The position numbers and the translations under genes are program-made. Below are positions 41,920 to 58,697 of a stretch of 64,000 bases of DNA, in pieces. This DNA is from Phyllosticta citribraziliensis. Taxonomy: Eukaryota. Numbering within the stretch: position 1 is the stretch's first letter; each line of letters begins with the position of its first letter. Location of the stretch: the NCBI RefSeq assembly GCF_038025025.1, contig NW_027117339.1, positions 2,604,001-2,668,000 on the forward strand, in the 5' to 3' direction. The notes beneath the pieces are model-generated. The model had not been told where the DNA came from and did not search any database. It saw only the letters and a list, made by a program, of their open reading frames with translations.

Positions 41920-43408
41920 ATGCCCAGTGCCACCGGTTCGAGCTGGGAGAAGTACCAAAAGAACTACGCCGACGATGAGGTAGAAGAGAAGAAGATCACC
42001 CCGCTCTCTGATGAGTACGCGTACCGCTCGATGCCGCGCGGCCCCAAACGCTGACCCTCTCTCAGAGATATCCAAGTGCTCAAGACCTATGGCGCAGCAC
42101 CGTACGCCGCGGAGCTCAAGAAGCTGGAGAAGGAGATCAAGGACAAACAACAAAGCGTGAATGAAAAGATTGGTGTCAAGGTAAAGCTCATAACGCTCTT
42201 GGTCTCGCCGACCACAAGGAACAACATGCTGAAAGGAAGCTAGGAATCGGACACTGGTCTCGCACCGCCGCATCTCTGGGATATCGCCGCCGACCGTCAG
42301 CGCATGCAAGAGGAGCAGCCGCTCCAAGTCGCACGGTGCACGAAGATTATCCAAGACGAGAAGGACTCGGACAAGAGCAAATACGTCATCAATGTCAAGC
42401 AAATCGCCAAGTTCGTGGTAAATCTGGGCGAGCGGGTGTCTCCCGCCGACATCGAGGAGGGCATGCGTGTTGGGTGAGTCGCAGAATCCAGTCAAGCTCC
42501 CGACCTCATCGCTAACAGGCCATTTCAGCGTCGACCGCAACAAGTACCAGATCCTGCTTCCCCTCCCGCCCAAGATAGATCCCTCCGTCACGCTCATGCA
42601 AGTCGAGGAGAAGCCCGATGTTACATACGGCGATGTTGGTGGCTGCAAGGAGCAGATTGAGAAGCTTCGCGAGGTCGTCGAGATGCCCCTGCTGTCTCCG
42701 GAGCGCTTCGTCAACCTCGGTATCGATCCACCCAAGGGAGCTCTGCTTTACGGTCCTCCGGGTACCGGAAAGACGCTTTGCGCGCGAGCGGTGGCCAACA
42801 GGACAGACGCTACCTTCATCCGTGTCATTGGTTCTGAGCTGGTGCAAAAGTACGTCGGCGAGGGTGCCCGCATGGTTCGCGAACTGTTCGAGATGGCGCG
42901 GACAAAGAAGGCTTGCATCATCTTCTTCGACGAAGTTGATGCCATTGGTGGAGCCCGTTTCGACGACGGCGCTGGTGGTGACAACGAAGTTCAGCGCACT
43001 ATGCTTGAGCTGATCACGCAGCTGGATGGATTCGACAGCCGCGGCAACATCAAGGTCATGTTCGCGACAAACAGGCCTTCGACGCTCGACCCTGCCCTCA
43101 TGCGTCCGGGTCGTATTGACCGCAAGATCGAGTTCTCGCTGCCGGACATGGAAGGCCGCGCCAACATTCTGCGGATTCACGCCAAGAGCATGTCGGTCGA
43201 GCGCGACATCAGATGGGAGCTCATCTCCCGCCTGTGCCCCAACTCAACGGGTGCCGAGCTGCGCAGTGTTGCGACGGAAGCAGGCATGTTTGCCATTCGT
43301 GCGAGGAGAAAGATTGCAACCGAGAAAGACTTCTTGGCCGCCGTCGACAAGGTCATCAAAGGCAACCTCAAGTTCAACTCGACGGCCACGTACATGCAGT
43401 ACAACTAG
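41920..43408 (+). CDS. RPT1: 26S proteasome regulatory AAA-ATPase subunit 7, multi-exon
   Basis: [79 protein letters not shown]-terminal YMQYN. Confidence 0.97.
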
Positions 43409-43689
43409 ACGGGCCCCGCGCGTCTCTTTCTCGGCTGGGTCCTTTTTCTTTTGCTTTTACATGGAATGGCATCGGTTGCGCTCGATCGGGGGATTCGTAT
43501 TGAGTAGGAGGCTGAGTAGGTGGAGAATTCCAAACACATCATCTTTGATAGAGCTGCTCTTCGTCCACGTCTTTGCCTCTTGCGTGGTCTATGGTTTCTT
43601 GGGCGTGACTACCCAATGGTTGAGTGCCTCGTAACAATCCCATCCACGGGGCGGCTCGTCTCCCGCGTCACGCAATGGAACATGGAGTC

Positions 43690-44490
43690 GAGTTGAATGC
43701 CCGAGTGCAGAGTTTGAAATCTTGGAGTATTCAATTCCTTCTCCGCATGTGTGCACGAACAGGTCCCTGACACGCGGATCTACAAGGAAAAGGGAGCATT
43801 CAAGCACTTTCCCCCAGGATTCAAGCAAGCCCCGAACCAGTGTTATAGACTGCAAGTAAGTGCGAGAAGAGGGAGCATTCACGCACCCTTCCTCAAGATG
43901 CAGACGTGCCCGCAATGCAGGTCTACAAAGGCAAGAAGAGGAAGCATACAACGCATCTCCCCATTCCGGCATGATGGTAGCAAGTGTCTGAACAAGTGCC
44001 AGAGTCCGGCCGTACGGGAAGGGGGAGCATCCGAACAGTATCCATGATGTGATGTAAACAGGTGCCCGCTATCTGGCTCTGCAAAGACAAGAAGAGGGAG
44101 CATCCAACACATCCCCCCATTCCGGCATGATGGAAGCAAGTGCCTGCACAACTGTCAGAGTCCGCCTGTGCGGGAAGGGGGAGTATTCAAGCGCCTCTCT
44201 TGAGATGCAAACAGCTGCCCACTATCCGGGTCTGCAAAAGCAAGAACAGGGAGCATTCAGGCACATCCTCAGGCACTCCGGCGTGATGGAAGCAAGCATC
44301 TCAACATCCGATCAAGTGCCAGAGTCCGACTGTGCAGGAAGGGTGAGCATTCAAGCACTTCTCTTGAGATGCAAGCAGGTGCCCAAGGCGAAGTGTGGGG
44401 AAGGGAGCATTCAGACACTGTGTGAGAACACTTTTACGGCGAGCTTTTCTGTCACGAGGGAGTGTCAAGGAGCATTCAAGTACATCACAG
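43690..44490 (+). repeat. Degenerate tandem array: 11 copies of a GGAGCATTCAAGCAC core, alternating ~70/~83-bp spacing (~155-bp dimer)
   Basis: Cores at ~43724, 43793, 43872, 43941, 44024, 44097, 44180, 44250, 44344, 44404 and 44469. The subunit CCATTCCGGCATGATGGAAGCAAG..CAGAGTCCG recurs at ~43961, 44117 and 44273. Confidence 0.88.
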
Positions 44491-44536
44491 GGGAATGAAA
44501 ATGGTCGGGAAGAAGTCAATTGGTCGGCTGTCTGAG

Positions 44537-45020
44537 TCAGTAGGGATTGACTCGAGGGCCCTGTCCGCTGCTGTGCACCACGTCCACCACCTTGGCCACC
44601 TCGGTTGATGTTCTGGACACCGCGTCCACCACGCCCTTTTCCATCATGCCGGAGTGGGGAAATGTGCTTGAATGCTCCCTCTTCAACGACTGGTGGCTGA
44701 CATAACCCTGGCAACTCCGTACCACTGAAGGATTTTGAGGGCAAATGGTCATTGTACTACTCATTCAAGGCCCTTTGAGCCCAATTCTATCCTCAGTAGA
44801 GCGCGACTCGAGCACTCTGTCCGCATTGTCCGCCAGGTCCAGGTCCTCCACCGCCGCGGCCTGGCTTGCTGCCCTACCCATCGCTTCCACAGGGAACATT
44901 CATGTCACGGCAGCTGAAGGATTGTGAGGGCAAATGATCGTATTACTCATTCAAGGCCCTCAGTACGGATTGACCCGAGCACTCTGTCCGGCGCCAGGTC
45001 CTCCAGGTCCTCCACCAGGT
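44537..45020 (-). repeat. Three tandem copies of the helicase gene's 3' end (last codons, stop and part of the 3' UTR)
   Basis: GQSARVNPY* (stop 44960), GQSARVALY* (stop 44793) and GQGPRVNPY* (stop 44537). The ~50-nt block CTGAAGGATT.TGAGGGCAAATG..ACTCATTCAAGGCCCT occurs at 44725 and 44914. Confidence 0.85.
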
Positions 45021-48000
45021 CCTTTCCCGCCTTTTCCAGGTCCACATCCACCACCAGGTCCGCCTTTGCCCTTGCCTTTGCCCTTGTTGGTCCCCTTGCC
45101 CTTGTTGGCACCCTTGCCACCTTTGCCACCCTGTCCGCCGCCGCCGCCACTTCCATCTCGCCACGGAGCAGCTGGAGTCTGATACGAACCCATACCTGTT
45201 CCTCTGGGAGCGTTGTTGAGCCCAGCCGCAGCAGCAGCAGCGTTGGAGTTGGAGCGCTGCGCATCATTGACGACGAAAGTGCTGTCTTTGATGGCGGGTT
45301 CTGTCACCTCTTGGCCTGCGAGAATGTTCAAATAGTCGGTAACATCGATAACATCCCTCTTGTAATCCAGGTCTTGAACAAGATGATGCAGAGACGAAAG
45401 GACCTTTTTAGCCACCAACGCCTTGTCTTTGCGGTGTATGCCCCTAATCCAAGGCGCAAAGTTGCCGAAGATGTAAAGGCAATGCTTCCCGCGCGAAAGA
45501 GCGACATTGAGGCTGTTCTCCTGGGCCATGAAAGCGATGTCGAATTCATTATCGAGCTTGTTCACCGTTAGCGACAACAGAACTACCTTACCTTGACTTC
45601 CTTGGATTGCTGCTACTGTCATGACCCTGATTTGGCGAGCAACATCGTTGGGGAACGCTTGGTAAAGCTTTTCGACAAGGAGGCGACGCTGGCCACTGTA
45701 TGGCGAACCCACCAAGATTTCCCGTGGGTCGACTTGCCTCAGATCGGTTTGATTCGGACGGGGTCGAACTGCCAGGAGCTTACTGATGGTAGCAATAAGG
45801 GCGTTTGCTTCCGACTCGTTGCAGAGAGACGGCGTATTCTTGTAAGTGTGGGACGAAATTTGCCGGTCCCCAGCAAGAGAGGTGGAGACGTCGATGGCGA
45901 TACGACGACGACGGTTCCAAACGCGACTGCCAGCAGATCGCATGGTCAGCTTGATCGTGCCCTCAAGTTGAATGTCGCGTTTCGCCTTGCAAATCAGGCT
46001 CCCGTTGTAGAATTCGTCCGAGATGAACGCCATCAGCTCCTCGTCCATGCGGAAGCATTCGACAAGCATGAACGCAGCAACATCCTCATCGTCTTTCTTC
46101 GCCTGCAGGACATGGAAGACACTTGGACCCAGGAGTTTAATCGCCTCGTTGTTCATCTGCGACTGCAACACCGGACGCTGCTGCTTGTGATCGCCGGCAA
46201 ACATCACGGTCTTGACACTGTGTCGAAAAGCGGCAAGAGGGATTGCAACCTCTGGAACGGTAGACTGGCCACACTCGTCGACGATGATGACTTCAGGGCG
46301 GAAATTGCCCGTCAGGATCTCATGCGCAGCTCGAGAAGTTGTCGTGAACACAACCTGGATGCCTGCCTTTCCTTTGAAGAATTCCTCGGTGAATTCCACC
46401 TCTCTGAGACCCTTCGCGGTCTTCCGAAGCTCTTTCTTCGCCTTCTTTGACACTTTCGGATCTTTCGATTGTGCGAGGCACTTGAGATATTGCAACGCCT
46501 TGTCGCAGAGTGAATGGGTCGAATCGGTCGAAATTCTTGCGATCATCGCTTCCAGCATACTGGGAAACGAGAAAGCCTCCAAATCCAAGTTTTCGGCCGT
46601 GAGCAGATTATCCCACATGCTGTTGAGCAAATCCTGTTGCTCGGAGGCATCCGAAGGAGGGGTTGCATCAGTGGCACTGGGCGCTGTCTTCCTGGTGCCG
46701 CCACCCGAGAAACGACAGAACTTGCGAGCGTCCATGCTGGTTGACGTCCTGAACTCGTCGAAGGCCTGGTCGAGAGGGGAGTTGACTGTTGCGCAGAACA
46801 GGATCCGAAGACCCGTCGCTGCCAGAGCTTCAATGGCCGCGATCTCAGTTCCCGTTTTTCCCGTTCCCGGTGGGCCCCACAGCGTGACGGTCGGGTAGTT
46901 CATCGTTGCTCTCACAGCCCTGGCTTGCTCCTCGTTCATGTTCGAGCGCTCGATGAACTCGTGCACCAGAGCCCTTCTTTCGGGCTTCTCATCAAACCAC
47001 TGCTTGAGCGCATCCTGTCCACCCTTACGTGGACCCAGGTCAAGGAGAGCCCTGATGTCAACGCCGCATTGTCCTTTTGGTCGGTTCTGGAAGAGCAGTT
47101 GAAGAGCGCTGAGCTGGCGGGACGTGGGCACCTCATCGTCAAGTGCCGAAATGATGATGGGGTATCTCTTTCCGGCTTCAAGCGCGAGCTCTGGCCCGCG
47201 GGCGAAGACGTTGAAGTGAGCTTTTGTTTCAAGGTGGTCATCAACGACAGATCCACTGAACTTGGGCCAGCGCTTGCCGTCGCCAAAATCAACCTTGAAT
47301 ACAACCCGAGTGTCAATCTGGGGTTGCAACTGGTCGGCGTTCGACTCGGGCAGCCACACCGAAACCATGTACTGCGAAGGCTCCGAAGGGCAGGGGATGA
47401 ACTCGGCCCTCGCTGCTGGTACATTGGAGAGGCTGCTGACTCGGAGGATCGTCTGCTGAGCTTCACGCTCGCGTTGGACAGACAAGCGCCACAAGAACAT
47501 TCTCTGTTCAATTGGTAGACCCTCGGGCAACTCAAATGATGCCCATGATGCCGGAATCAGGATCGGCCGCGAATTAGGCCTGCCGTGTTGCCTTCCAACC
47601 CACCATTTCTCGACGAGCCACCTTGGGACTTCCAGTTCGCGAAGAGGATACTGTTGGCTTGACATTGACCCGCGGACTTCAGGACACTGCAGGCGGTAGA
47701 ACCACATGAGACCAACATCCCTGCTGACCTTCATCAGGGGCATGAAGAAGCTGCGGAGCCGAGTGAACTCGCCCAATCCATGCTTTTGAATCAGCGTGAA
47801 TATGGACAATTCAACGTCTCCCTGGGCCAGATGTGCCACAATCTTTTCCTCGTCAGTCAGAGTATCGTGGTCTGCGTCGCAAATGGCGGTAATCCGGCTC
47901 TTTTCAAGGCCCACAAACTCGATCCGGGAGCGGCTCTTCGTCCTCTGGGGTCCGTGTTGCACATTCGTGTTTCCGGAATCGACGTCCATCGCCTCACCAA

Positions 48001-49387
48001 TCGGTGTGAATTGGGAGGCTCCGAGCGCTGGAGCAGCTTTTGGCGCATTGGAAGCTGTCCACGTGCGTGCAGCGATCTTGACGCGTGTCACGACCCACTG
48101 CCATTTGTCGGGCACATTGGCAGTGTCGGCAGGAAGGCTCTTCCAGGCAGATACGTCGTCTGCCGTAGGCTCCTTTTCGCCAGTGCGCATCGCCAACGAG
48201 CACATCTCCTGACCAACGTCTGGGTTTTCTTCGGATGGAATCTCCAGACAGGTGCCGAAGACGAGGCAAATCAAAGGCTTCGCACCTTTGCGATTGATGC
48301 TGATCTCCAGGTGCGGCCATTGCGTCTGGATCCTCCATCTCAGATTGATGATCGGGGAAGGGGCGGCGGGCGATTTGGGGAAGCAGCCAAACACCTCTCC
48401 TGATTTGAAGCGGAGGACTGCTCCGAACTTGCTGAGCATATGCTTTCCACCCGGCTGTGGGGTGAGCTCCTTGGATGACGGAGTGTCCATGCCCCTGTAT
48501 GCGGCCGTGACGCATGCCAAGTCAGTGCGGTACGATGGACACCGTTCGGCGAAGTCGAGGATTGCGGCGTTTTGCAACGTTTCGCTGTCTTGACGCTCGT
48601 ATTGGTACACTGGCTTGGGGGTGTATCCTGTTGTTCCCTCCATGGCGATGTCCCCTTCTTCGTCGACATCTTGGTCGACGTCTTCCGTTTCCGTAGTGTG
48701 AGCGTGCTCAACAGGGGCGGGCTCCTCCTCGATGTCCATGGTGTCTTCGTCGCGCTCGACAGGCCCCATCGACTCGACGCAGGCTGCACAGGAATATCGC
48801 TCCGTCGCGGGTAGAGATGCATTCTTTGGGCGCATCGAGCTTTCGGGGACGAGGTGGAAGGTTTCTCCCGGGAGATTACAGCGAGAAAGGCAAGCTGCAA
48901 CTCGAAGGTCTGGGTCGACGGGCAAATTCCAGGTTTGATCCTCAGCATCAACGCAGTAGTAGCATGTTCCCTTGTCAGAGACGCGCCTGGGAATACTGCC
49001 AACAAGGTCGCTCGAGGTGACCAACGATTTTTTCGCTGAAACCGCGTTGCCGGGCCTGGACATGTCGCAATCTCGGCAAATGACCGCGTTGGTGACAGCT
49101 TGCCAGGCTTTGCTGGGGCAATCCACACAGCTCGCGAACACAAGATCAGCCTTCAGATACTCCGGATCGCACTTCATTTCTGAAGTGACATGTCTCAATT
49201 CTGCCGCGTGCGCTCCGGCGAAGCACCAAACCTCATCGACTGAACGGTTCAGCTCACACGACAGGCAAACCCCACTGGCTTCGGCCCGTTGCTCAATGGA
49301 TTGCCGGAACCTACAGTTCGGGCATTGAAACCAGAGAGCCGGGGCCTTGGCCGGGGCCGGAGCCGCGGGGGAAATGGACGAATCCAT
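44960..49387 (-). CDS. Superfamily-1 helicase (UPF1/DNA2/NAM7-like, AAA_11/AAA_12) with a Cys-rich N-terminus and G/K/P-rich tail; intronless, 1475 aa
   Basis: MNEEQARAV (Q motif), [56 protein letters not shown]-terminal CPNC, CLSC, CVDC, CRDC, CYYC and CAAC pairs. Confidence 0.9.
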   Translation of the reverse strand: MDSSISPAAPAPAKAPALWFQCPNCRFRQSIEQRAEASGVCLSCELNRSVDEVWCFAGAHAAELRHVTSEMKCDPEYLKADLVFASCVDCPSKAWQAVTNAVICRDCDMSRPGNAVSAKKSLVTSSDLVGSIPRRVSDKGTCYYCVDAEDQTWNLPVDPDLRVAACLSRCNLPGETFHLVPESSMRPKNASLPATERYSCAACVESMGPVERDEDTMDIEEEPAPVEHAHTTETEDVDQDVDEEGDIAMEGTTGYTPKPVYQYERQDSETLQNAAILDFAERCPSYRTDLACVTAAYRGMDTPSSKELTPQPGGKHMLSKFGAVLRFKSGEVFGCFPKSPAAPSPIINLRWRIQTQWPHLEISINRKGAKPLICLVFGTCLEIPSEENPDVGQEMCSLAMRTGEKEPTADDVSAWKSLPADTANVPDKWQWVVTRVKIAARTWTASNAPKAAPALGASQFTPIGEAMDVDSGNTNVQHGPQRTKSRSRIEFVGLEKSRITAICDADHDTLTDEEKIVAHLAQGDVELSIFTLIQKHGLGEFTRLRSFFMPLMKVSRDVGLMWFYRLQCPEVRGSMSSQQYPLRELEVPRWLVEKWWVGRQHGRPNSRPILIPASWASFELPEGLPIEQRMFLWRLSVQREREAQQTILRVSSLSNVPAARAEFIPCPSEPSQYMVSVWLPESNADQLQPQIDTRVVFKVDFGDGKRWPKFSGSVVDDHLETKAHFNVFARGPELALEAGKRYPIIISALDDEVPTSRQLSALQLLFQNRPKGQCGVDIRALLDLGPRKGGQDALKQWFDEKPERRALVHEFIERSNMNEEQARAVRATMNYPTVTLWGPPGTGKTGTEIAAIEALAATGLRILFCATVNSPLDQAFDEFRTSTSMDARKFCRFSGGGTRKTAPSATDATPPSDASEQQDLLNSMWDNLLTAENLDLEAFSFPSMLEAMIARISTDSTHSLCDKALQYLKCLAQSKDPKVSKKAKKELRKTAKGLREVEFTEEFFKGKAGIQVVFTTTSRAAHEILTGNFRPEVIIVDECGQSTVPEVAIPLAAFRHSVKTVMFAGDHKQQRPVLQSQMNNEAIKLLGPSVFHVLQAKKDDEDVAAFMLVECFRMDEELMAFISDEFYNGSLICKAKRDIQLEGTIKLTMRSAGSRVWNRRRRIAIDVSTSLAGDRQISSHTYKNTPSLCNESEANALIATISKLLAVRPRPNQTDLRQVDPREILVGSPYSGQRRLLVEKLYQAFPNDVARQIRVMTVAAIQGSQGKVVLLSLTVNKLDNEFDIAFMAQENSLNVALSRGKHCLYIFGNFAPWIRGIHRKDKALVAKKVLSSLHHLVQDLDYKRDVIDVTDYLNILAGQEVTEPAIKDSTFVVNDAQRSNSNAAAAAAGLNNAPRGTGMGSYQTPAAPWRDGSGGGGGQGGKGGKGANKGKGTNKGKGKGKGGPGGGCGPGKGGKGPGGGPGGPGAGQSARVNPY

Positions 49388-49544
49388 TTGGGGTGAATGT
49401 CTTAAGGTAAAGCTCTATGAAGAGCTACCGACAGTCAAGCAAATACTAGGCGTACCTAGTATTGCCCCACTCCGTAGGAGCGGTAATCGCAACAAAAAGT
49501 TACGACTGAGGGAAGCGCTTAACGGAGCGCGAGCCGGGGGAGAG
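49366..49544 (-). ncRNA. Structured 5' leader, copy 1 (upstream of and overlapping the helicase start)
   Basis: Reverse complement of 52421-52598 at roughly 85-90% identity in the core, by eye. Five stems with compensatory or G.U-consistent differences between the copies. Confidence 0.75.
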
Positions 49545-52420
49545 GGTGTGTGCGCCGGGGCGCGTGAACGAGGGGGCGCCGGGGCGCGAGAGCGAGGGCG
49601 CGGGAGCGCGAACGAAATGGCTTGCAGCAGAGCTGCAAACCAGGAAGACGGGTGACGCGAAGGTGGCGTCAAGGGGGGGGAGGGTCGGAGGTGGTGGAGA
49701 GGAGAGGAAGAGAGAGGAGAGTTGAATTCGAAAGACTGACTGAGGGTTGTGGGCGCAAGCGGCGCCATTCCCAATCGGGACGACCACCTGCCCGGAGGCA
49801 GGTGCGGGTTCCCGTCGGCCAAACAGTCCAGCGGTACTCCTGGAAAACACCACACGAGACTGCCGTCTGCTCAGGTCAAAACAACATCCACGCTGGATAC
49901 ACCAAACACTGGCAGAGGCTGCAACTCTTTCTACCCGAAATTCCCTCCAATCGATACAGTGAGTGTACAGGTAAGAAAGCTCCATTTCCTCATCTGCTGT
50001 ACTGAATTAATGCTCCCTGGACACGGCTGTGGTGCAACGAAAGCTTCCTGGCCTCGACCGTGGGTGGCGGTGGATGGACGCTCCCAGGCCACAGCCGCGG
50101 CGCTGAATGGATTCTACATGGAAGCAGTCATGGCCAAATGGCGGCTCTCTGGCTCGAGGCGCCCATCTTCGAGATGACAGCAGAAAGGCATTCTTTGCTA
50201 CTGGTATCCGACCTTTCCTTTGCCCGAAAAGATGGCTAACGGGATCGGTCCACAGGCCCTGGTTGCCCGTCAGTATTTCGTGATTCCCGCTCGGAAACGC
50301 CCCATCACATTTCCGACCGTTCAGTTCCACCTATTTGCGCTTCATGCTCCTCTTCAGGCATTCGAGGGATATTTTGACAATGACATGAGAGGAATAGAAG
50401 GCTAGAGGCAAGCCGATGGACAAAGAAGGAAGGGAAAGCTATTTGCTGGACAAAGCGATGAAACCAGCCCGCACATATGCCTCTGATTGCCCATCGGTGG
50501 TTTGCGTGCTGGGGAGCCACCTACCACATTTCCATCTCTTCAACCCTACCTTGCACTCATGTACATCTTCATCAAGCAAGCCAGACCATCAAAGGATGGT
50601 ATGCCAAGAACCTGAGTGGCAAGTAGGGCGAGCGACGAGCCGACAATTGAACGAGGAAAGGTAAGTTGTTTGCTCCCACACACGCCTAGCATGGCTTCGG
50701 CATTACTCGCCAATCCAATTTTATCCGCTTTCTTTTTATGAGATGATTGGGCGAAAAGGTAGCTTTCATTGCGATGATGGTGCTGCTCAAACGGGAACGT
50801 TTGGGCAACTTGATGATGTCTATCTAGGCGGTGAGCGCGTATGCATTCCGCCCCGCCGATGCTTGTCTGATATTACGGTACGCTCCCTTGCTCTCTCCCG
50901 GACTTCCGTCGGATGCTGCCAAGGAACGTCTGCCCCTACATGTTGTCGATTAGTTAATCCAAACCCATCATGTCGACGTGCAAGGAATCATCTTCCCGTT
51001 GGAAAAGTGAATCGGCTGGTCCGTGCTTGCGTCTTCATCGCCTCAGCTGCAAAGAACGACTCGCAAGCAGAGCGCCTGCAGACTGTGCTCTGGCCACCAC
51101 ACCACCACCGGGTTTCCGACCACTTTGTCCATGGCGAGCACTGCGGGATACTCAGTAGCGGAGTTGGGAGGTCTGCAGATAAGCCTCGGGGTCAGTTGTC
51201 TCGTGGTCGGTCGCTGGGACCAATTGCTGCCGAATATGAATGTATCCCTCCCATCTTGTTCCAGACCACGACCCACTAATGGATGACATATAGCCGATGA
51301 ACTGACTTGAAGCCCAGCCCCCATCCAGCAAGCGCCGTCACCAGAAGCCAGGTCGAACGGGCCTCATGACTGGATGCGACTCCAAGCCTGCCATATGTAC
51401 CGAGAAGCATAGGAAAATTGTGCCGTCGTGGGTGTGTTTCTCTGGAACATGAAGGTACATTGACTTGTAGGGGATCTTCGCATTTCTACTGCGCCACTGG
51501 TAAGCCAATGAAAAAAAGCGATTGAACGACAGCAGGTCTCTGCGCGCCTGGGAACTTGTCTTGCCCAAGCGCCAGGAGAATCGCCGCGCATCTTACCAAA
51601 CGAAATGCCTGCACGCTGCCATCAGTAGAATCCAAGGCCACGCTTCGCAGAAGTCCCTTTTCATGTTTCAAACCTCATGCGCGCTCTTTGGACTCAGATT
51701 CTCAAGCCCGGGACCATGAAGAGAGTCCACTACCTTTCCACCTCACGGTATGTAGACGAAGTTTTGTCCTAAGGCCCAAGACGTGGGTGGTCGATCGTTC
51801 TGCTTCCAGTCAAATACTCGATGTCTTCCATCAGCCTCTCCGCGACCCTTCCATCGGATCCCTGGACCCTTCAACTTCGATGTGTCCTACGGTTCTTCGC
51901 GCCAAGTCTTGCCGAGATCGACACGCCAGAGCAGGCGTCTTCGCAAGAGCAAGTTGTCCGCCAGCGACAGGAATCCCAGGATTGGCAATGTCTCGAGATG
52001 CCATCGTATGACGGACGCATTTGAAATCGGAATGCGGGAGCTGTTCGATTCATGGGAGCACGCCGTCCGTGAGTTGAATTTTGGTGGAACTAGCGATTGA
52101 AATCGCGACGCAGACGGCAAGAAGTGTCGCCGTGTCTGCTGGCGAACAGTTTCCAAGGAAAGAAAGAGTCGAGCTGACAGACCGGGATGCGATTGCATGC
52201 GCCGGATCGAAAGTCGAGCCGACTTGGGAAGGCCCCCTGAGAACAGAGTCAAGAAACTCCATGGGCGCGATGCTTCTATTCTTTTCCTCTTTGCACCTCT
52301 CACTACGTTCTGGAAATCGTCAAGGCATTCGTGTCTTGCGCGAGACATCCAGAGCAGTGAAGAGGTAAATTCCATCGTTTCGTTATTTTCCGCCCTCTCG
52401 CCCTCTCGTTCTCCTTGCCG

Positions 52421-52598
52421 CTCTCCGCCCGGTTTCGCGCACCGTTAAGCGCTCTCCCCAGACGCAACCTTTGTTGCGGTTACCACTCCTACGGAGTGGG
52501 GCAATACTAGGTTCGCCTAGTATTTGCTTAACTGTCGGTGACTCTTCATAGAGTTCACCTTAAGACATCATCTCCAATGGACTCGTCCATTGCCCCCC
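52421..52598 (+). ncRNA. Structured 5' leader, copy 2 (upstream of and overlapping the GIY-YIG gene start)
   Basis: GTTAAGC..GCTTAAC encloses CGCAAC/GTTGCG, CCACTCC/GGAGTGG and AATACTAGG-TTCG-CCTAGTATT. This is followed by TGTC-GGTG-ACTCT-TCAT-AGAGT-T-CACC-TTAA-GACA, ending 10 nt before ATG 52577. Confidence 0.75.
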
Positions 52599-55015
52599 GC
52601 CGTGAGAACGGCTCTGGTAGGAAGACCTACCCTGAGCAAGCCGCAAGGCCTGCCAAGAGGGTGAGGTCGTCGTCGGCGAACAAGGAGAACGACGACGAAG
52701 ACTACCTCTACGTGGCTGACGGCGATGCCGACTACCACTTTGAACTTCGCGAGGACGTCCAGCCGAGGCGGTCCTCGAGGATCGCTGCTCAACCCCTGAC
52801 CTTGAAAAGTCCGAACCAGAGGCTTTCTCGTCCTTTCAGGGTGCCCTCGAGGTTGGCTGCTCCCGGTCCGGCGCTGTCGACTCCGTCGCGTCCTCCCACG
52901 CCGCGTCCCGCTCCCACCTGGCATTCGGCTGTTCCCACGCCGGCTCCTTCGGCTTCGTCGAATGCTCCTGCTCCGTCGGCCGACAACTTGATTCGGCAAT
53001 CAGAGGACGACGACGACGACGACGAGCCTCCCAGGAGGCCGTGGGGCAGGACGAGTGTCTTCCTCGAGATGGACGAAGACAAGGACGAGGAAGACGAGTC
53101 TCCGAGGAGGCCTTCGAGGGCGGGCCGAAAGCGTCTCATCATTGACATTGTTGGTGAGCAAGAGCAAGGCATGCCCGCAGAGGCCGGAGACCCCGTCGGG
53201 AACGATGGACTTCCCGAGGACGATGGACCTGCCGAGGACAATCGACCTGCCGAGGACAACGAGCCCGACTGGTTTGCCATGGTGGAGCAGGACCAGGAAG
53301 CTCACGGCGCTGTGGATGACGACAACGACGATGTCGAGCCTGAGGAAGACGACGACGAGAACGACAGCGACGGCGACATCGACGACGTCGACCAATCCAA
53401 CGTCGGAGATGGCGACGATGAAGAGGACAATGATGCCTTCGCACTGTCCCCTGCTGTTCGTCGCCAAAGGGCAAATTTCGTCCGCAGAATGGAGAATCTC
53501 AAGATCAACATCGGTGAGCCCGCTGAACAAGGAGTATCATACACTGACATTCTGCAGAAGAGGGCACACCTCCACTATTCACTGTCCATCGAAGCCTCAA
53601 CTCTGAAGCAAATCATCATGCGTCCTGAAAACGGCGACGGTCCAGTTGGTGCAACAAGATTTTTCATGTCATTTCTTCGGTACGTCAATGTTGACCACCT
53701 GGTTGACCATTTGGTGGGACAGCTTCCGGATGCTTCGGTCAACGTCCTCGGAGACGGAAATGGGCTTACGGCACAGAAGATCATGGACCTGCCTCGTCTG
53801 CCAAATGAGGAGATGTGCTTGACTGGGGTTTACCTCGGGCTTATCGAAGAGGACGGTCTCTACACTGGCTCCGCTCGTTCTGACTTTGGTTTCCTCTCAC
53901 GATTCTGCCAGTATGACCGAATCGCCAAGGGTGGCCTGAAAGCAGCACTGCCTTTTGAAAGAGCCATCGCAGGGCACAGCGACAACGTCAACATCCGCGC
54001 CCTGTATGCATCACCGGTGGCGTCCACTCCGGCCATATACACGCTGTGCTACGAGACTTTGATCATGATTCTCGTGGACTCTGTGATGCCCATCTCCGAG
54101 AATATCAAATTTCTGCCAAGTCTCCATGGAGAATGGTACAAAGAGGCGGTGGGCGCTATTCGTGAACTGTTTCGCCCCTCCCCATTTCAAGGCCATGGCT
54201 TGAATCGAGTTTGGTCAATAGCGCAGTCTGTGCCCAGACAGTCCATACGCTACCTTCAGAACACGACGTGCAACAACTGCCACGTGTTGTGGACGCCAGA
54301 GACAAGACACAGCTGGGTCGACGGCCAGGTCCTCTTTGCCTGGAGATGCGCCGCTTGTGAGTTCTACCTCTGGAAAAGAGGCGTTCCCCGGCCAGTGAAG
54401 TTTCAGGTCAGAAAGCAGAGACTGGCAAGAGCAAGAGCGGCAAAACTCGACGACGTGTGTCCGAGCTGTACGGGTACCTTCGATCATTGGAACCTCGTCC
54501 GTTTCCAAGAGGAAGACTTTTTGGTTTGCGACAAGTGCAAAGGATTCATCAACCAAAAGAATCGATTCATGCGGCCGGACGATCATCGTTATGGCGACTA
54601 CAAGTACCCTGACAAACCAGAGGATGGACTTTGTGTCAGCTGTCTTGTGCAGCCCTGCAGGACAATCGTCAAAATCTCTGGGATAGAGCATTGGGTGTGT
54701 GGCGCCTGTTTCAGTTTTCGTGATCGAAACCAGCGCCTGAAGGTGGCGACAGACCCCGGCCATAGGGACTACGGTCAAATTCCCGCCAGTGGTGAGTGCC
54801 CCAGTTGCTTGAAAATCTTCTCACATGACAAGGAAAGATGGAGCTCGGTGGACAAGGACGGCTTCAAAGTCAAGGTCTGTGGCAACTGTTATCAATTTAC
54901 AAGGAGTAATCAAGGGCGATTCAAGACAGCTGCCAACAGGGGCCACAGAGATTGGGTGGCCCAGTGGCCCAAGAATGATCGCTATGTTCCAGTCAGTCAA
55001 CTGCGACAGTCTTGA
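52577..55015 (+). CDS. Putative GIY-YIG endonuclease with a disordered acidic N-terminus and four C-terminal GATA-like Cys4 zinc fingers; intronless, 812 aa
   Basis: GVY-x9-YTGS, downstream Arg (FLSRF..Y), Glu (CYETLI) and GLN appear in GIY-YIG order. Fingers are CNNC-x22-CAAC..RGVPRP, CPSC-x19-CDKC, CVSC-x18-CGAC and CPSC-x23-CGNC. Confidence 0.72.
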   Translation: MDSSIAPRRENGSGRKTYPEQAARPAKRVRSSSANKENDDEDYLYVADGDADYHFELREDVQPRRSSRIAAQPLTLKSPNQRLSRPFRVPSRLAAPGPALSTPSRPPTPRPAPTWHSAVPTPAPSASSNAPAPSADNLIRQSEDDDDDDEPPRRPWGRTSVFLEMDEDKDEEDESPRRPSRAGRKRLIIDIVGEQEQGMPAEAGDPVGNDGLPEDDGPAEDNRPAEDNEPDWFAMVEQDQEAHGAVDDDNDDVEPEEDDDENDSDGDIDDVDQSNVGDGDDEEDNDAFALSPAVRRQRANFVRRMENLKINIGEPAEQGVSYTDILQKRAHLHYSLSIEASTLKQIIMRPENGDGPVGATRFFMSFLRYVNVDHLVDHLVGQLPDASVNVLGDGNGLTAQKIMDLPRLPNEEMCLTGVYLGLIEEDGLYTGSARSDFGFLSRFCQYDRIAKGGLKAALPFERAIAGHSDNVNIRALYASPVASTPAIYTLCYETLIMILVDSVMPISENIKFLPSLHGEWYKEAVGAIRELFRPSPFQGHGLNRVWSIAQSVPRQSIRYLQNTTCNNCHVLWTPETRHSWVDGQVLFAWRCAACEFYLWKRGVPRPVKFQVRKQRLARARAAKLDDVCPSCTGTFDHWNLVRFQEEDFLVCDKCKGFINQKNRFMRPDDHRYGDYKYPDKPEDGLCVSCLVQPCRTIVKISGIEHWVCGACFSFRDRNQRLKVATDPGHRDYGQIPASGECPSCLKIFSHDKERWSSVDKDGFKVKVCGNCYQFTRSNQGRFKTAANRGHRDWVAQWPKNDRYVPVSQLRQS

Positions 55016-56299
55016 AGCTCGCGATGTCCATGTAGTGCGGAAAATATGAGATTGGTTTTATTCTATATTCAGGAATGAAAATGTGATCTTCTTTGTTCCT
55101 TGACTCGTGTTGCAATATGCCCAAATGTGCGAGTTTTCAGAGACGAGACCTGATATTTGTAGTTAAAAGGGATTGGTGTGGGACACAGAGGTTTCTGAAG
55201 AGATGGACCGAATCGCTGGCGTAAGCAGCCTGTACGCTATCACTGATGTTCTTCCCCTTTGATTCCCACCTCTACCTTGTTTTACCCGCGCGAGCAAGCG
55301 ACAAGAGATACTAGGAACCCCCAGGCTTTTGCGTGGCCAAGGAAGGTATGATGGAAGAAAGCGGGATAATGGATCCTCCCGAATCACCGCCCGAGACACC
55401 ACAGACAGGTACCTCAATGTTTGCTGTCACGCTCTTGCGAAGGGGCCTCAACGATCTTTCTGCTGTTCATGTTCCTTGTCTAGACACCCATCTACTTGGT
55501 CGATCAATCGGCCGATTTCATTTGAGAAATTTCGTAGAAGTATTTGTGGCCATATTGATTACTTGAATGGAATCACTTGAAAGTTTGCTGGCCGTACTCT
55601 ACCGTACCATGCCCTGGTAACACAGCCACTGCCTTGGGGCAACGGCGATGGACGAGATGATGGACCCAGTGAACGAAGCGGGCGGATGAGGAGGAAAACG
55701 TGGGAAAGGTCGTGGCAACCTCGCATTCAAGGTGGTCAGACTCGACGAGTTCGGGGTAGCTGTCGAAAAATGATTGACCCATCCTAGCGCTTGCCGTGGA
55801 TGTACGGTCAGACTTGGAGGGGTCAGGGGGTGTCATTGAAAGAGGCAGTATAGCTGGAGCTCGTCATTCTCGGCCAGTCTTCTTGTTAGTGGAGCTTCTG
55901 ACCGATGGACCAACGCTAGATGCACCCGGCTCACGACCCCAAGCCAAATAAGTTGACTGAAGGTTTTAGTAAATCAATCAGCACATCAATCAGCACATCA
56001 AGCAGTGGACCAAGCAGCCATTGACGTGGTCATAGAAGCTGCTTTCCAGGCAGCAAACGAAGGGGTCAAGGTATAAAGAGCGGCTGCAGCGGCAATGGCA
56101 GAAGTGGAAATAAAGTAGTAGATTCCAAGCACGGTGAGCCGCGGATTGCCTCCTATTCTGAGAGATGTAGATATATTTTACTCCAGACTATAGACGTAAC
56201 ATCTTATCCTCCACCGCTTGCCTTTGGTCATGAAGTGACTTTTTTGGAGATCCTCGTCTTGGGAGTTTCGCCTCGCGGAGCCATTCCTATTTTTGAACT

Positions 56300-56840
56300 C
56301 CTCTCATGGACTTCGGTCCTACCACTTCCTTCGCGTCGTGGGGCGATTTCATCATCGCTTTATAGCCGCTGGCCTTCCAGTTAGGGTCGGCTTTGACATC
56401 ACTTTGGATTTCGGTCCCACCACTTCCTCCGGGTCGTGGGGCGATTCCCTTCGAAGTTGCTTTGTTCTTTGGCACCCCATTTCGGGGCGACCATCCTCTC
56501 TCTCTCTCGCTTCATGAACTTCGGTCCTACGAAGTAGCGGTGGCGTCGTCAACAGCGTTTCACCTACTACATTTTCTCTTCACCACTGCCTACGGGTCGT
56601 GAAGCGATCTCCCAGGTCCTGCCTAGAGATCGTCTGTAAAGCCGGTGGCTCTTCATAGAGTTTTACCTTTTACATCAATTTTTTTCATGGGCTTCGGTCC
56701 TACACTTCTTACGGGAGGAAGGCGATTTTTTAATCGCTTTGACAGTCGCTGACCCTCCAGTAGGAGTCGGCTTTCAACACAACTCTGGAGTTCGGTCCTA
56801 CCACTTCCTTCAGGTCGTGGGGCGATTTCCTCGGAGGTCA
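56300..56840 (+). repeat. Degenerate array of a ~38-bp unit TTCGGTCCTACCACTTCCT..GGTCGTGGGGCGATT, ~100-bp period
   Basis: Copies at 56312, 56410, 56520 (5' part only), 56581 (3' part), 56693 and 56791. Block 56304-56450 is duplicated at 56685-56830. Confidence 0.88.
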
Positions 56841-56972
56841 TTTTTTGGGGGCGGTGGAGGGGAATCACTTGATGGGTTCGGGTTTAGCCATCCCTTACAA
56901 AATCGGCACTTTACTCCCTTTTTCCTCTTTTTCTCTCTCTTCCCCCCTTCTACAAACCCGCACTCAAACAAA

Positions 56973-57674
56973 ATGGTCAAGAAATGGTCATTGACAAGCT
57001 ATTCGGCCTCGGCCAGCGGTGTGCTTCCTGCCGACCTGACCTGCACGCCAGCATTCCTCCGAAACATCGCCAGGAACTCACGGCCAATTCGCGGAGTCCA
57101 ACACTAGAGACGACTCGAAACGTCTACCGAGGAGAGAGATGGCGAAAGCTTCACGGGATGGATGCGGAGAACGAGAGAGGTCTCACGGAGCAGTCGCCAC
57201 GATCTTCGGGCTCTTCGAGAACGGGGGGATTCTCGGCCCAGGAGAAGGGCGGAGAGGGGGAACTTGTTGGTAAAAGAGACCCGAGGTCAGCCTGATCCCG
57301 CTCCAGCTTTGGACGCAAATGATGTTAAATCAAAAGTCTTCAGCATGGAAACCTATCCCAACCTGCCGCAGGTGTACGCGTACAAAAGCCGCGATAGCCA
57401 GACGTTGGTCGCACCCGGTCACCTCGAACTAGCGGGGTCGTCTCCATCTTACCGCTCCTCTACGACATACGCTTCACCGACATCCGAAAACAATCTGCTC
57501 GCCAAGCGGAGTGCGGTGCTCAGGCTCAGCACAAGAATGGTGTTTGGCCAGTTGGTGTTGTCCTTGAATATCAACTTGGGCTTCGAGCTCCATTCGCAGT
57601 GGGTGCATCTCGACATTCGCGTCGGCTCAGACTCTGGGTACTGGGACTCTGATGACGGATCAGAGATGGTTTGA
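56973..57674 (+). pseudogene. Possible interrupted ORF (single in-frame TAG at 57105-57107)
   Basis: CT-rich leader and CAAACAAAATGG start. The frame stays open after the TAG and is in frame with ORF 57162-57674. No recognisable domain. Confidence 0.3.
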
Positions 57675-58697
57675 TGGTAGACTGGTGTGCTGGTGGTGCA
57701 GGGTGTACGTTCTGGCTTTTCCAATGTTTCCTGGGGTCTGTGTCTTGTTTTGTCGGCGTTGGGGTTTAGACTGCTGCTGGCGCCACTTTGCGGGCGGGGC
57801 GTTCGCTCTTAGATAGCTGAGACGTCAGATCCGACGAGAGAATCGAACGCTTTCCAACGTTGACTGCTTCTTCGCGCACTACCATCACCACCTGTACGAT
57901 GAGCAACAAAAGCGCCTCCACACTGGTCCCTAGGAATGTCAGGCCAGGCCGACAGGCATTCTTCTTCCACATCCTGCCAAGGCAGAAGCGTGAATGAAAA
58001 AGTAGAGGGACCGCTTATGCAGCGGTCTTTTTGTTCCAAAAATTGCGCCCCCAGCTGTTGAAGAAAGAGGAAAGAAGAGAGGGAAGGCGGAGGTGGAAAC
58101 AGCGTGGAAGGCGAAGGGAGGGAAGCCATGAGGCCAAGGTGCCGATTTTGGTGGGAGAGCTGAACCCGAAGAGAAAATTTAGACCATTGAAATGGCCTGC
58201 CGTGGAGAAGTCAAGTGGAGAGCTGGATGGAGAGCTTTTATAGACAGCCCCCAGGCGACTTGGTTGCGCCTGCGCTAACCTTGGTCAGGCAGCTGGCCGG
58301 CTCAACCGGTTTCGACTTTGTCAAGTCTGATGGATGAGAGAGGCCAAAGGTCTAGGTAAGGTACATAGGTAGGAATTGTACCGGTAGGTCGGACCGGGAG
58401 GGGGCGCACAGATGCACGGGCCTGCGCACTACGCCCGATTAGGCAATATCTCGAACCTCAACACCACTTCGATAGTCTGTACGTCTGTGCCTGCGCGGCG
58501 TCCAAGCAAGTATACTGCGTGTAGAAGCATTGGTTTACACCCTATTGAGCTCAAAAACACTGTAATAGCTAGCTTATTGGCTGTATTCCAAAGCCAATTC
58601 GAAAATATGCATTTGCTGTCTGAACGAAGCTCCCCCTTGACCCCCTTTACATCTAAACACCAAGCCACTCTCGAGAACTTTCTCCTGGGCTTTGAAT

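Follow-up and report, generated by a model that had tools for sequence, protein, structure and literature searches.

Why should two genes that encode unrelated proteins begin with the same structured stretch of sequence, and does this common beginning make them a working pair? The question is raised by a 64-kilobase (kb) window of the Phyllosticta citribraziliensis genome (RefSeq assembly GCF_038025025.1, contig NW_027117339.1, positions 2,604,001 to 2,668,000 of the forward strand), which is the whole stretch inspected here and in whose coordinates all features are given. Between RPT1 and SDH1 lie two long uninterrupted open reading frames (ORFs), a helicase gene on the minus strand (44960-49387, 1475 amino acids, aa) and a nuclease gene on the plus strand (52577-55015, 812 aa). 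They stand head to head, as the initial annotation of the window had described, and diverge from a common intergenic region of ~3 kb.

With a probability of about 0.5, we read the two genes as a lineage-restricted helicase-nuclease module for nucleic-acid processing, resident in the chromosome of a filamentous ascomycete, in which a 5' module that hides the AUG gives common translational control and the nuclease is further limited by unproductive splicing. The co-regulation of the pair, as first annotated, is supported by three observations: both genes have the structured leader, they are divergently arranged, and both are expressed in two RNA data sets. We do not take the pair for an element that is mobile at present.

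The leader common to both genes

Leader copy A lies directly before the helicase coding sequence (49388..49600, minus strand) and copy B directly before that of the nuclease (52380..52576, plus strand), where a CT-rich tract precedes it. As inverted arms, the two copies match at 93% over 84 nucleotides (nt; 49413-49496 and 52470-52553), with extensions of 50 nt (76%) and 24 nt (79%). In all, the homology covers ~200 nt and runs through the ATG and the codons for MDSSI, with a mean column identity of 90% over 194 columns. A 20-nt core of the leader occurs three times in the window against 0.01 occurrences expected, and a 26-nt core twice against 0.00. Both copies fold strongly (z scores of -4.0 and -6.5), and none of 200 shuffles of either copy folds equally well, confirming that the two genes have a structured leader in common.

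The consensus structure is a multi-hairpin module of the 5' untranslated region (5'UTR) with 49 base pairs in seven helices, the last of which encloses the AUG; in copy A this hairpin extends to codons 1-5. No pair is broken in either copy (0/49). Columns that differ between the copies are scarcer at paired positions (7/98) than at unpaired ones (16/64; Fisher p 0.0023), and all seven changed stem positions still pair, two pairs through double-sided changes (A-U/G-C and A-U/C-G) and three through one-sided changes involving G-U. In controls with the partners slid out of register, 34-43% of cells paired, compared with 100% for the predicted structure. UNCG tetraloops are stable RNA loops, and the changes seen in the leader loops are UACG to UUCG and UUCG to CUCG.

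The stems are near-perfect inverted repeats with spacers of 3-5 nt (for example, two 9-base-pair arms separated by 4 nt), and both proteins carry zinc fingers. The element might thus act as DNA, its palindromes on either side of a bidirectional control region being bound by transcription factors that work as dimers, perhaps by the GATA-like fingers. We regard this as improbable. One or both copies have G-U at four of the predicted pairs, and three substitutions swap G-U with Watson-Crick pairs, which keeps RNA pairing and not DNA palindromy. Furthermore, UNCG-type RNA tetraloops occupy the loops, and the leader does not lie upstream of a promoter but directly at the start codon, which it includes. 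Since G-U pairs fit sense RNA and neither duplex DNA nor the antisense strand, the pattern points to a sense-strand RNA element.

The stretch before the start codon is free of ATG for 306 nt in the nuclease gene and 380 nt in the helicase gene. Further upstream, ATGs occur at about chance density (nuclease, 51318-52576: 21 found, 17.0 expected; helicase, 49388-50258: 8 found, 9.3 expected). These ATG-free zones suggest a working 5'UTR of roughly the leader plus 100-170 nt, starting near the CT-rich tract.

The window holds two intact leader copies and one degenerate copy, all within 7.3 kb, and none in the other ~50 kb. A search of 43000-58500 against Rfam gave two sub-threshold matches, both outside the leaders. 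An origin from a transfer RNA (tRNA) or a short interspersed nuclear element was rejected, as no tRNA-like gene was found in 43000-58500. A ~200-nt structured 5' leader that is common to two unrelated genes and absent from Rfam is new.

Under our preferred reading, the leader would be a ~200-nt module with a chain of six or seven hairpins, of which several have UNCG-type tetraloops and the last sequesters the AUG. A local inverted duplication would have created the second leader, donating the first five codons as well. The leader may then impose common translational control on both genes, either by occluding the start codon or through an RNA-binding factor common to both. If the leader is such a switch, it would be a rare case in fungi in which two enzymes that may endanger the cell are coordinated by a single RNA element.

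Outside the leader, no similarity was found between helicase and nuclease (best BLASTP E 0.75; Cys-rich parts E 1.4). The proteins would share nothing else if they were unrelated neighbours and a small local inverted duplication had copied the promoter-proximal 5'UTR of one gene, with its start codon, to the other; at most they would have regulation in common, with no joint function, and the hairpins would be inherited and not selected for a role specific to the pair. Such a history fits with other small duplications at the locus (the 3' end of the helicase gene and a helicase fragment, both described below) and with named homologues that come mostly from different species. On the other side, the leaders have diverged by ~10%, yet every pair is intact and the changes are mostly in unpaired positions, which argues that the structure has been maintained in both copies. 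A helicase beside a nuclease is, moreover, a recurrent functional pairing, and relatives of both proteins occur within the genus Phyllosticta. We find this account unlikely; were it correct, the finding would shrink to two orphan genes and a small duplication.

The helicase and the nuclease

The helicase coding sequence (44960..49387, minus strand) ends in a Gly/Lys-rich tail and is without intron, because the RNA contig 44946-50259 is unbroken across it. Its superfamily 1 (SF1) UPF1-like core (45461..46939, minus strand; residues 817-1309) consists of Pfam AAA_11 (residues 817-1077, E 4.7e-24, 86 bits) and AAA_12 (residues 1089-1309, E 1.1e-27, 97.4 bits), each with a gathering cut-off of 27, and the UPF1/DNA2-type assignment made earlier is borne out by both matches. 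The core contains the Walker A motif GPPGTGKT, IVDECGQ with the acidic pair of motif II, and the arginine of motif VI. In an alignment of seven sequences (the window protein and six relatives), G838-T845, G1065, D1066, Q1069 and R1299 are invariant. The closest solved structures in the Protein Data Bank by sequence are NAM7/UPF1 (2.4e-15), followed by IGHMBP2, SETX, DNA2 and SEN1.

N-terminal to the core lies a family-specific region (46943..48610, minus strand; residues 260-815), kept in all six aligned relatives. It was modelled with low confidence (predicted local distance difference test score, pLDDT, 58.7), and its top Foldseek matches, Upf1 and SETX, are weak (E ~1e-2). As weak evidence from this model, the C-terminal part of the region may resemble a UPF1-type barrel. 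The first 260 residues (48608..49387, minus strand) form a Cys-rich extension with several CX2C...CX2C pairs, which is absent in all six relatives and matches no Pfam family.

Among 8000 candidates scored, 570 matched the helicase at E<=0.001, and only a handful have its N-terminal two thirds in common. The best relative, from Phyllosticta citribraziliensis, has 36% identity at 79% coverage, and further relatives at 24-30% come from unnamed contigs, Kalmusia, Dothistroma, Saxophila and Botrytis. Outside the fungi, the first named matches are HELZ2 and IGHMBP2. With UPF1-like SF1B helicases (UPF1/NAM7, IGHMBP2, SEN1/SETX, HELZ2, MOV10 and ZNFX1) the window protein has the AAA_11/AAA_12 core and ATPase motifs in common. 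It differs from them in the ~550-aa N-domain, which only a few Ascomycota proteins and unnamed contigs have as well, and in the unique 260-aa Cys-rich extension; CH, R3H, RNB and NFX1 domains were not detected by Pfam. At 21-26% identity over 20-38% of the query, it is an orthologue of no named helicase, and this small helicase family with its unknown N-domain is new.

The helicase ORF as read here is missing from the protein collection and the Atlas searched, where the nuclease is present; the public genome annotation probably has another model of the helicase, or none. At its 3' end, a direct duplication of ~190 base pairs (44725-44858 and 44914-45022) repeats the stop-codon region and 3' flank at 82-92% identity in three blocks.

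The nuclease coding sequence (52577..55015, plus strand) gives 812 aa from the ATG and 825 aa from an upstream GTG. Its N-terminal ~300 aa are acidic and of low complexity, and a conserved helical region precedes the nuclease domain. The latter (53816..54229, plus strand; model residues 106-243) has a GIY-YIG fold by comparison with the I-TevI catalytic domain: 1mk0 gave a Z score of 7.6 and a root-mean-square deviation of 2.4, with 95 residues aligned to the 97-residue chain, and 1ln0_B a Z score of 7.5 (VIA-align). Foldseek likewise matched the I-TevI domain with a probability of 1.00, at an E of just 5.2e-2, and returned no match at E<=0.001. The AlphaFold model has a pLDDT of 65 overall and of 82-90 over the GIY-YIG part. 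No Pfam family was matched at E<=0.1, hence neither a GIY-YIG (PF01541 or PF19239) nor a GATA (PF00320) profile, and no PADLOC family was found.

In the sequence, GVY...LYTGSA...R...E...GLN reads as the GIY-YIG pattern. Y111, Y121, G130, R134, R166 and E185 are invariant in 14 of 14 aligned nucleases, G123 is nearly so, and the GLN motif is retained; the catalytic roles given to the conserved residues follow the literature on I-TevI and UvrC. Downstream follow four zinc-finger units, spaced CX2C-X17-20-CX2C in the sequence (54251..54913, plus strand). Compared with GATA4, GATA3, GATA1 and AreA they gave fold Z scores of 4.3-5.5, which are within the range of common small zinc folds. Of the name GIY-YIG/GATA-finger nuclease given in the initial annotation, the first half therefore stands by both fold and residue pattern and the second at fold level only.

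When the C-terminal 504 residues were searched exhaustively with HMMER against 1.84 billion representatives, 16 proteins, query included, reached E<=0.001, and the best foreign match had E 1.2e-11. The named relatives are from the ascomycetes Nothophoma quercina, Parastagonospora nodorum and Phyllosticta capitalensis, and one is in an Ixodes scapularis record. SLX1 combines GIY-YIG with a zinc finger, and the plant EFFECTOR OF TRANSCRIPTION (ET) factors are described as combining it with Zn/DNA-binding ET repeats (PMC6585611). The window nuclease has the fold in common with I-TevI, SLX1 and the ET factors, and the order of parts (GIY-YIG, then C-terminal zinc-binding repeats) with the latter two. 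It differs from all of these in the absence of Pfam GIY-YIG, GIY_YIG_domain and GATA matches, in its long acidic N-terminus and in the conserved helical region before the domain. This GIY-YIG plus GATA-like-finger family, missed by current profile libraries, is new.

Transcripts and a frameshifting intron

Expression was followed in X1 and X2, two sequencing runs of the same organism from two studies. Their contigs skip the GT..AG introns of RPT1 and SDH1 and hence contain RNA. Contigs from both studies cover both the helicase and the nuclease gene, so that the RNA coverage proposed as a check finds both expressed, and no base differences are listed between the window, X1 and X2 where covered. 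In X1, contig depth is 284 for the helicase and 305-443 for the nuclease, compared with 0-8 in the bins of 55171-58425.

Both genes had been called intronless, which holds for the helicase coding sequence; spliced introns lie upstream of both genes, and another lies inside the nuclease ORF. On the helicase strand, a 266-nt intron (50259..50524, minus strand; joint 50257->50524, CT..AC, X1) lies 871 nt upstream of the ATG and is part of either an isoform with a long 5'UTR or a separate transcript further upstream. On the nuclease strand, a 76-nt intron (51242..51317, plus strand) was found as a joint in X1, 1259 nt upstream of the ATG; X2 shows a different 5' site for it, near 51190.

The third, a 100-nt GT..AG intron within the nuclease ORF (53680..53779, plus strand), is joined in both X1 and X2. 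As 100 is not a multiple of three, the spliced mRNA is frameshifted, and its translation gives a 381-aa product that ends before the GIY-YIG domain. Relatives conserve the segment encoded by the removed stretch, and the model is confident there, which indicates that the nuclease is made from the intron-retained form. The nuclease contigs (51318-53679 and 53779-55051) break in X1 exactly at both borders of the intron, the pattern to be expected from a mixture of the two forms. The intron appears to be a case of regulated unproductive splicing. In the proposed mechanism it would be a second gate on the nuclease, closing the frame before the catalytic domain, and a second safety catch if the leader is a translational switch.

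Three further joints with 21-nt sides (45086->53005, 45242->53005 and 53025->58074) were taken as artefacts of GAC-rich low complexity.

Pairing, mobility and the surroundings of the pair

Among the main themes of immunity in prokaryotes is the pairing of a helicase with a nuclease. By analogy, we propose that the pair would survey foreign or aberrant nucleic acid, with the helicase as its motor or sensor and the nuclease as its effector; a role in defence or surveillance is possible. Among the known two-gene systems, prokaryotic Hachiman (HamAB) is presented as a helicase-nuclease defence (PMC12278908), and Hachiman and Mokosh alike have the two enzymes in adjacent genes, as here. The window nuclease is of GIY-YIG type, not HamA or PLD (MkoB), and the window pair is eukaryotic, divergently transcribed and known from sequence and RNA contigs, with immunity a suggestion. 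The helicase core matches the PADLOC profile of MkoA at E 6.7e-45. Since 1,095,192 eukaryotic matches to MkoA are given in the preprint on this family (bioRxiv 10.1101/2022.12.12.520048), a match of this sort is generic. Membership of Mokosh (MkoA and MkoB) was rejected, the nuclease having a GIY-YIG fold and no PADLOC family. A full-text literature search returned no description of an adjacent, co-controlled helicase-nuclease pair in fungi.

Several points weigh against the module as we read it. The covariation in the leader was reached by 104 of 500 shuffles and is, with two copies, statistically weak; the structure was predicted from the same two sequences that were used to judge its pairing, and gene conversion instead of selection could lie behind the similarity of the copies. 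RNA contigs reach far upstream of the leader, introns included, and the leader may lie inside a long 5'UTR laden with upstream ATGs. A His conserved in the nuclease family is Phe in the window protein. That both enzymes would cooperate on the same substrate follows the pairing logic of Hachiman and Mokosh, and the named relatives of helicase and nuclease are from mostly different species, so the pairing cannot be called conserved.

A complex prediction for the helicase N-extension with the C-terminal half of the nuclease scored 0.00, which speaks neither for nor against binding. The two proteins have tails of opposite charge, the Gly/Lys-rich end of the helicase (44963-45200, with 12- and 18-nt repeats) and Asp/Glu runs in the nuclease (52990-53430, with 18-nt repeats); judged from their composition, an electrostatic contact between them is conceivable. 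Single-protein scans of metagenome contigs (queries P0130 and P0133) returned no relative.

A bolder form of the module, which we consider unlikely, is that helicase and nuclease form a eukaryotic conflict system not described before, whether antiviral, anti-transposon or selfish. The common RNA switch would silence both effectors, the splicing gate would be added on the nuclease, and the leader cassette would spread by local or dispersed duplication, donating start codons.

The right side of the interval carries debris. Degenerate leader-derived repeats occupy 56298..56838 (plus strand; three dispersed 62-nt units and three units of 20 nt), in bins with a depth of 0-6 and 1.2 kb past the end of the nuclease contig (55051). 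They include the third, degenerate leader copy (56582-56669, nhmmer E 3.3e-6), with the 20-nt core at 56641-56660 bearing one mismatch. Some 0.7 kb beyond it, within ORF 57162-57674, lies a decayed paralogue of helicase residues 260-364 (57372..57623, plus strand; tblastn E 1.9e-7). By BLASTP it has 31% identity over 105 aa (E 1e-10), and a profile comparison was weak (probability 8%). The fragment is weakly expressed, with a 58-nt intron just upstream (57283->57342, depth 13.6). As a degenerate leader is followed by a decayed helicase fragment, the right side is debris of another leader and helicase copy.

GIY-YIG enzymes are classic homing nucleases. A selfish or mobile element, or its domesticated remnant, could accordingly be at work, with a GIY-YIG-linked leader cassette landing at gene starts and donating a start codon buried in a hairpin; the helicase would have acquired its leader and N-terminal extension by such a landing, and the debris at 56.3-57.7 kb would be a dead copy. 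The extra degenerate leader copies nearby, the absence of helicase residues 1-260 from all six relatives, and the extremely sparse and patchy occurrence of both families (16 nuclease proteins, query included; best helicase relative at 36%) are in keeping with this, as duplication and decay at the locus are with a conflict-type origin. Against it, no repeats, terminal repeats or target-site duplications bound the interval, and the leader is confined to this part of the window. When the two proteins and all 18 other ORFs of the interval (>=100 aa) were scanned with Pfam, no domain of a transposase, Rep, reverse transcriptase or recombinase came up. Viral contigs contained no relative of either protein. 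The sequence is identical in the two RNA data sets, the introns are of the host GT..AG type, and the composition is host-like. GC content across the interval is even (0.49-0.60) with no AT-rich tract, and at third codon positions it is 0.63 in the helicase and in the nuclease gene, with 0.72 in RPT1 exons and 0.70 in SDH1 exons. We hold this origin to be unlikely, and the selfish, mobile or endogenised virus-like unit first suggested receives no positive support from these data.

The statement that the locus fits none of Helitron, Penelope and Starship was correct, as HUH/Rep, reverse transcriptase, tyrosine recombinase and DDE domains are absent from the Pfam scans. Helitrons also have a helicase, whereas the locus has no HUH/Rep and its helicase is of UPF1 and not Pif1 type. 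Penelope-like elements have the GIY-YIG nuclease in common with the locus, which has no reverse transcriptase beside it. Compared with Starships and other DNA transposons, the locus (43.0-58.8 kb) is without tyrosine recombinase (DUF3435), DDE transposase or bounding repeats.

The flanking genes are as first named. The last exon of RPT1 ends at 43408, and its product has 97-98% identity to named 26S proteasome subunit 7/T1 proteins, alike in Lecanoromycetes, Leotiomycetes and Eurotiomycetes. The SDH1 flavoprotein gene lies on the minus strand from ~58457 (Pfam FAD_binding_2, 4.5e-70; Succ_DH_flav_C, 1e-46).

Each gene had also been thought to have its own tandem array downstream, in a symmetrical layout with arrays outermost. 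This layout fails on both sides. No array was reported by Tandem Repeats Finder at 56.3-56.8 kb, where the units are the leader-derived ones described above. The left array is real (156-nt units, 2.9 copies, 43932..44385, plus strand; 79% matches in Tandem Repeats Finder) and lies in a contig that continues the last exon of RPT1 (42528-44407 in X1, to 44087 in X2), while the helicase contig ends at 44946. It does not belong to the gene pair and has no similarity to the leader. Degenerate units of the array extend over ~43724-44488. The contig gives RPT1 an apparent 3'UTR of ~1 kb, and the 156-nt units within it lie where RPT1 and the helicase gene converge. A further unit at 44639-44684 is inverted and could pair with the units of the array.

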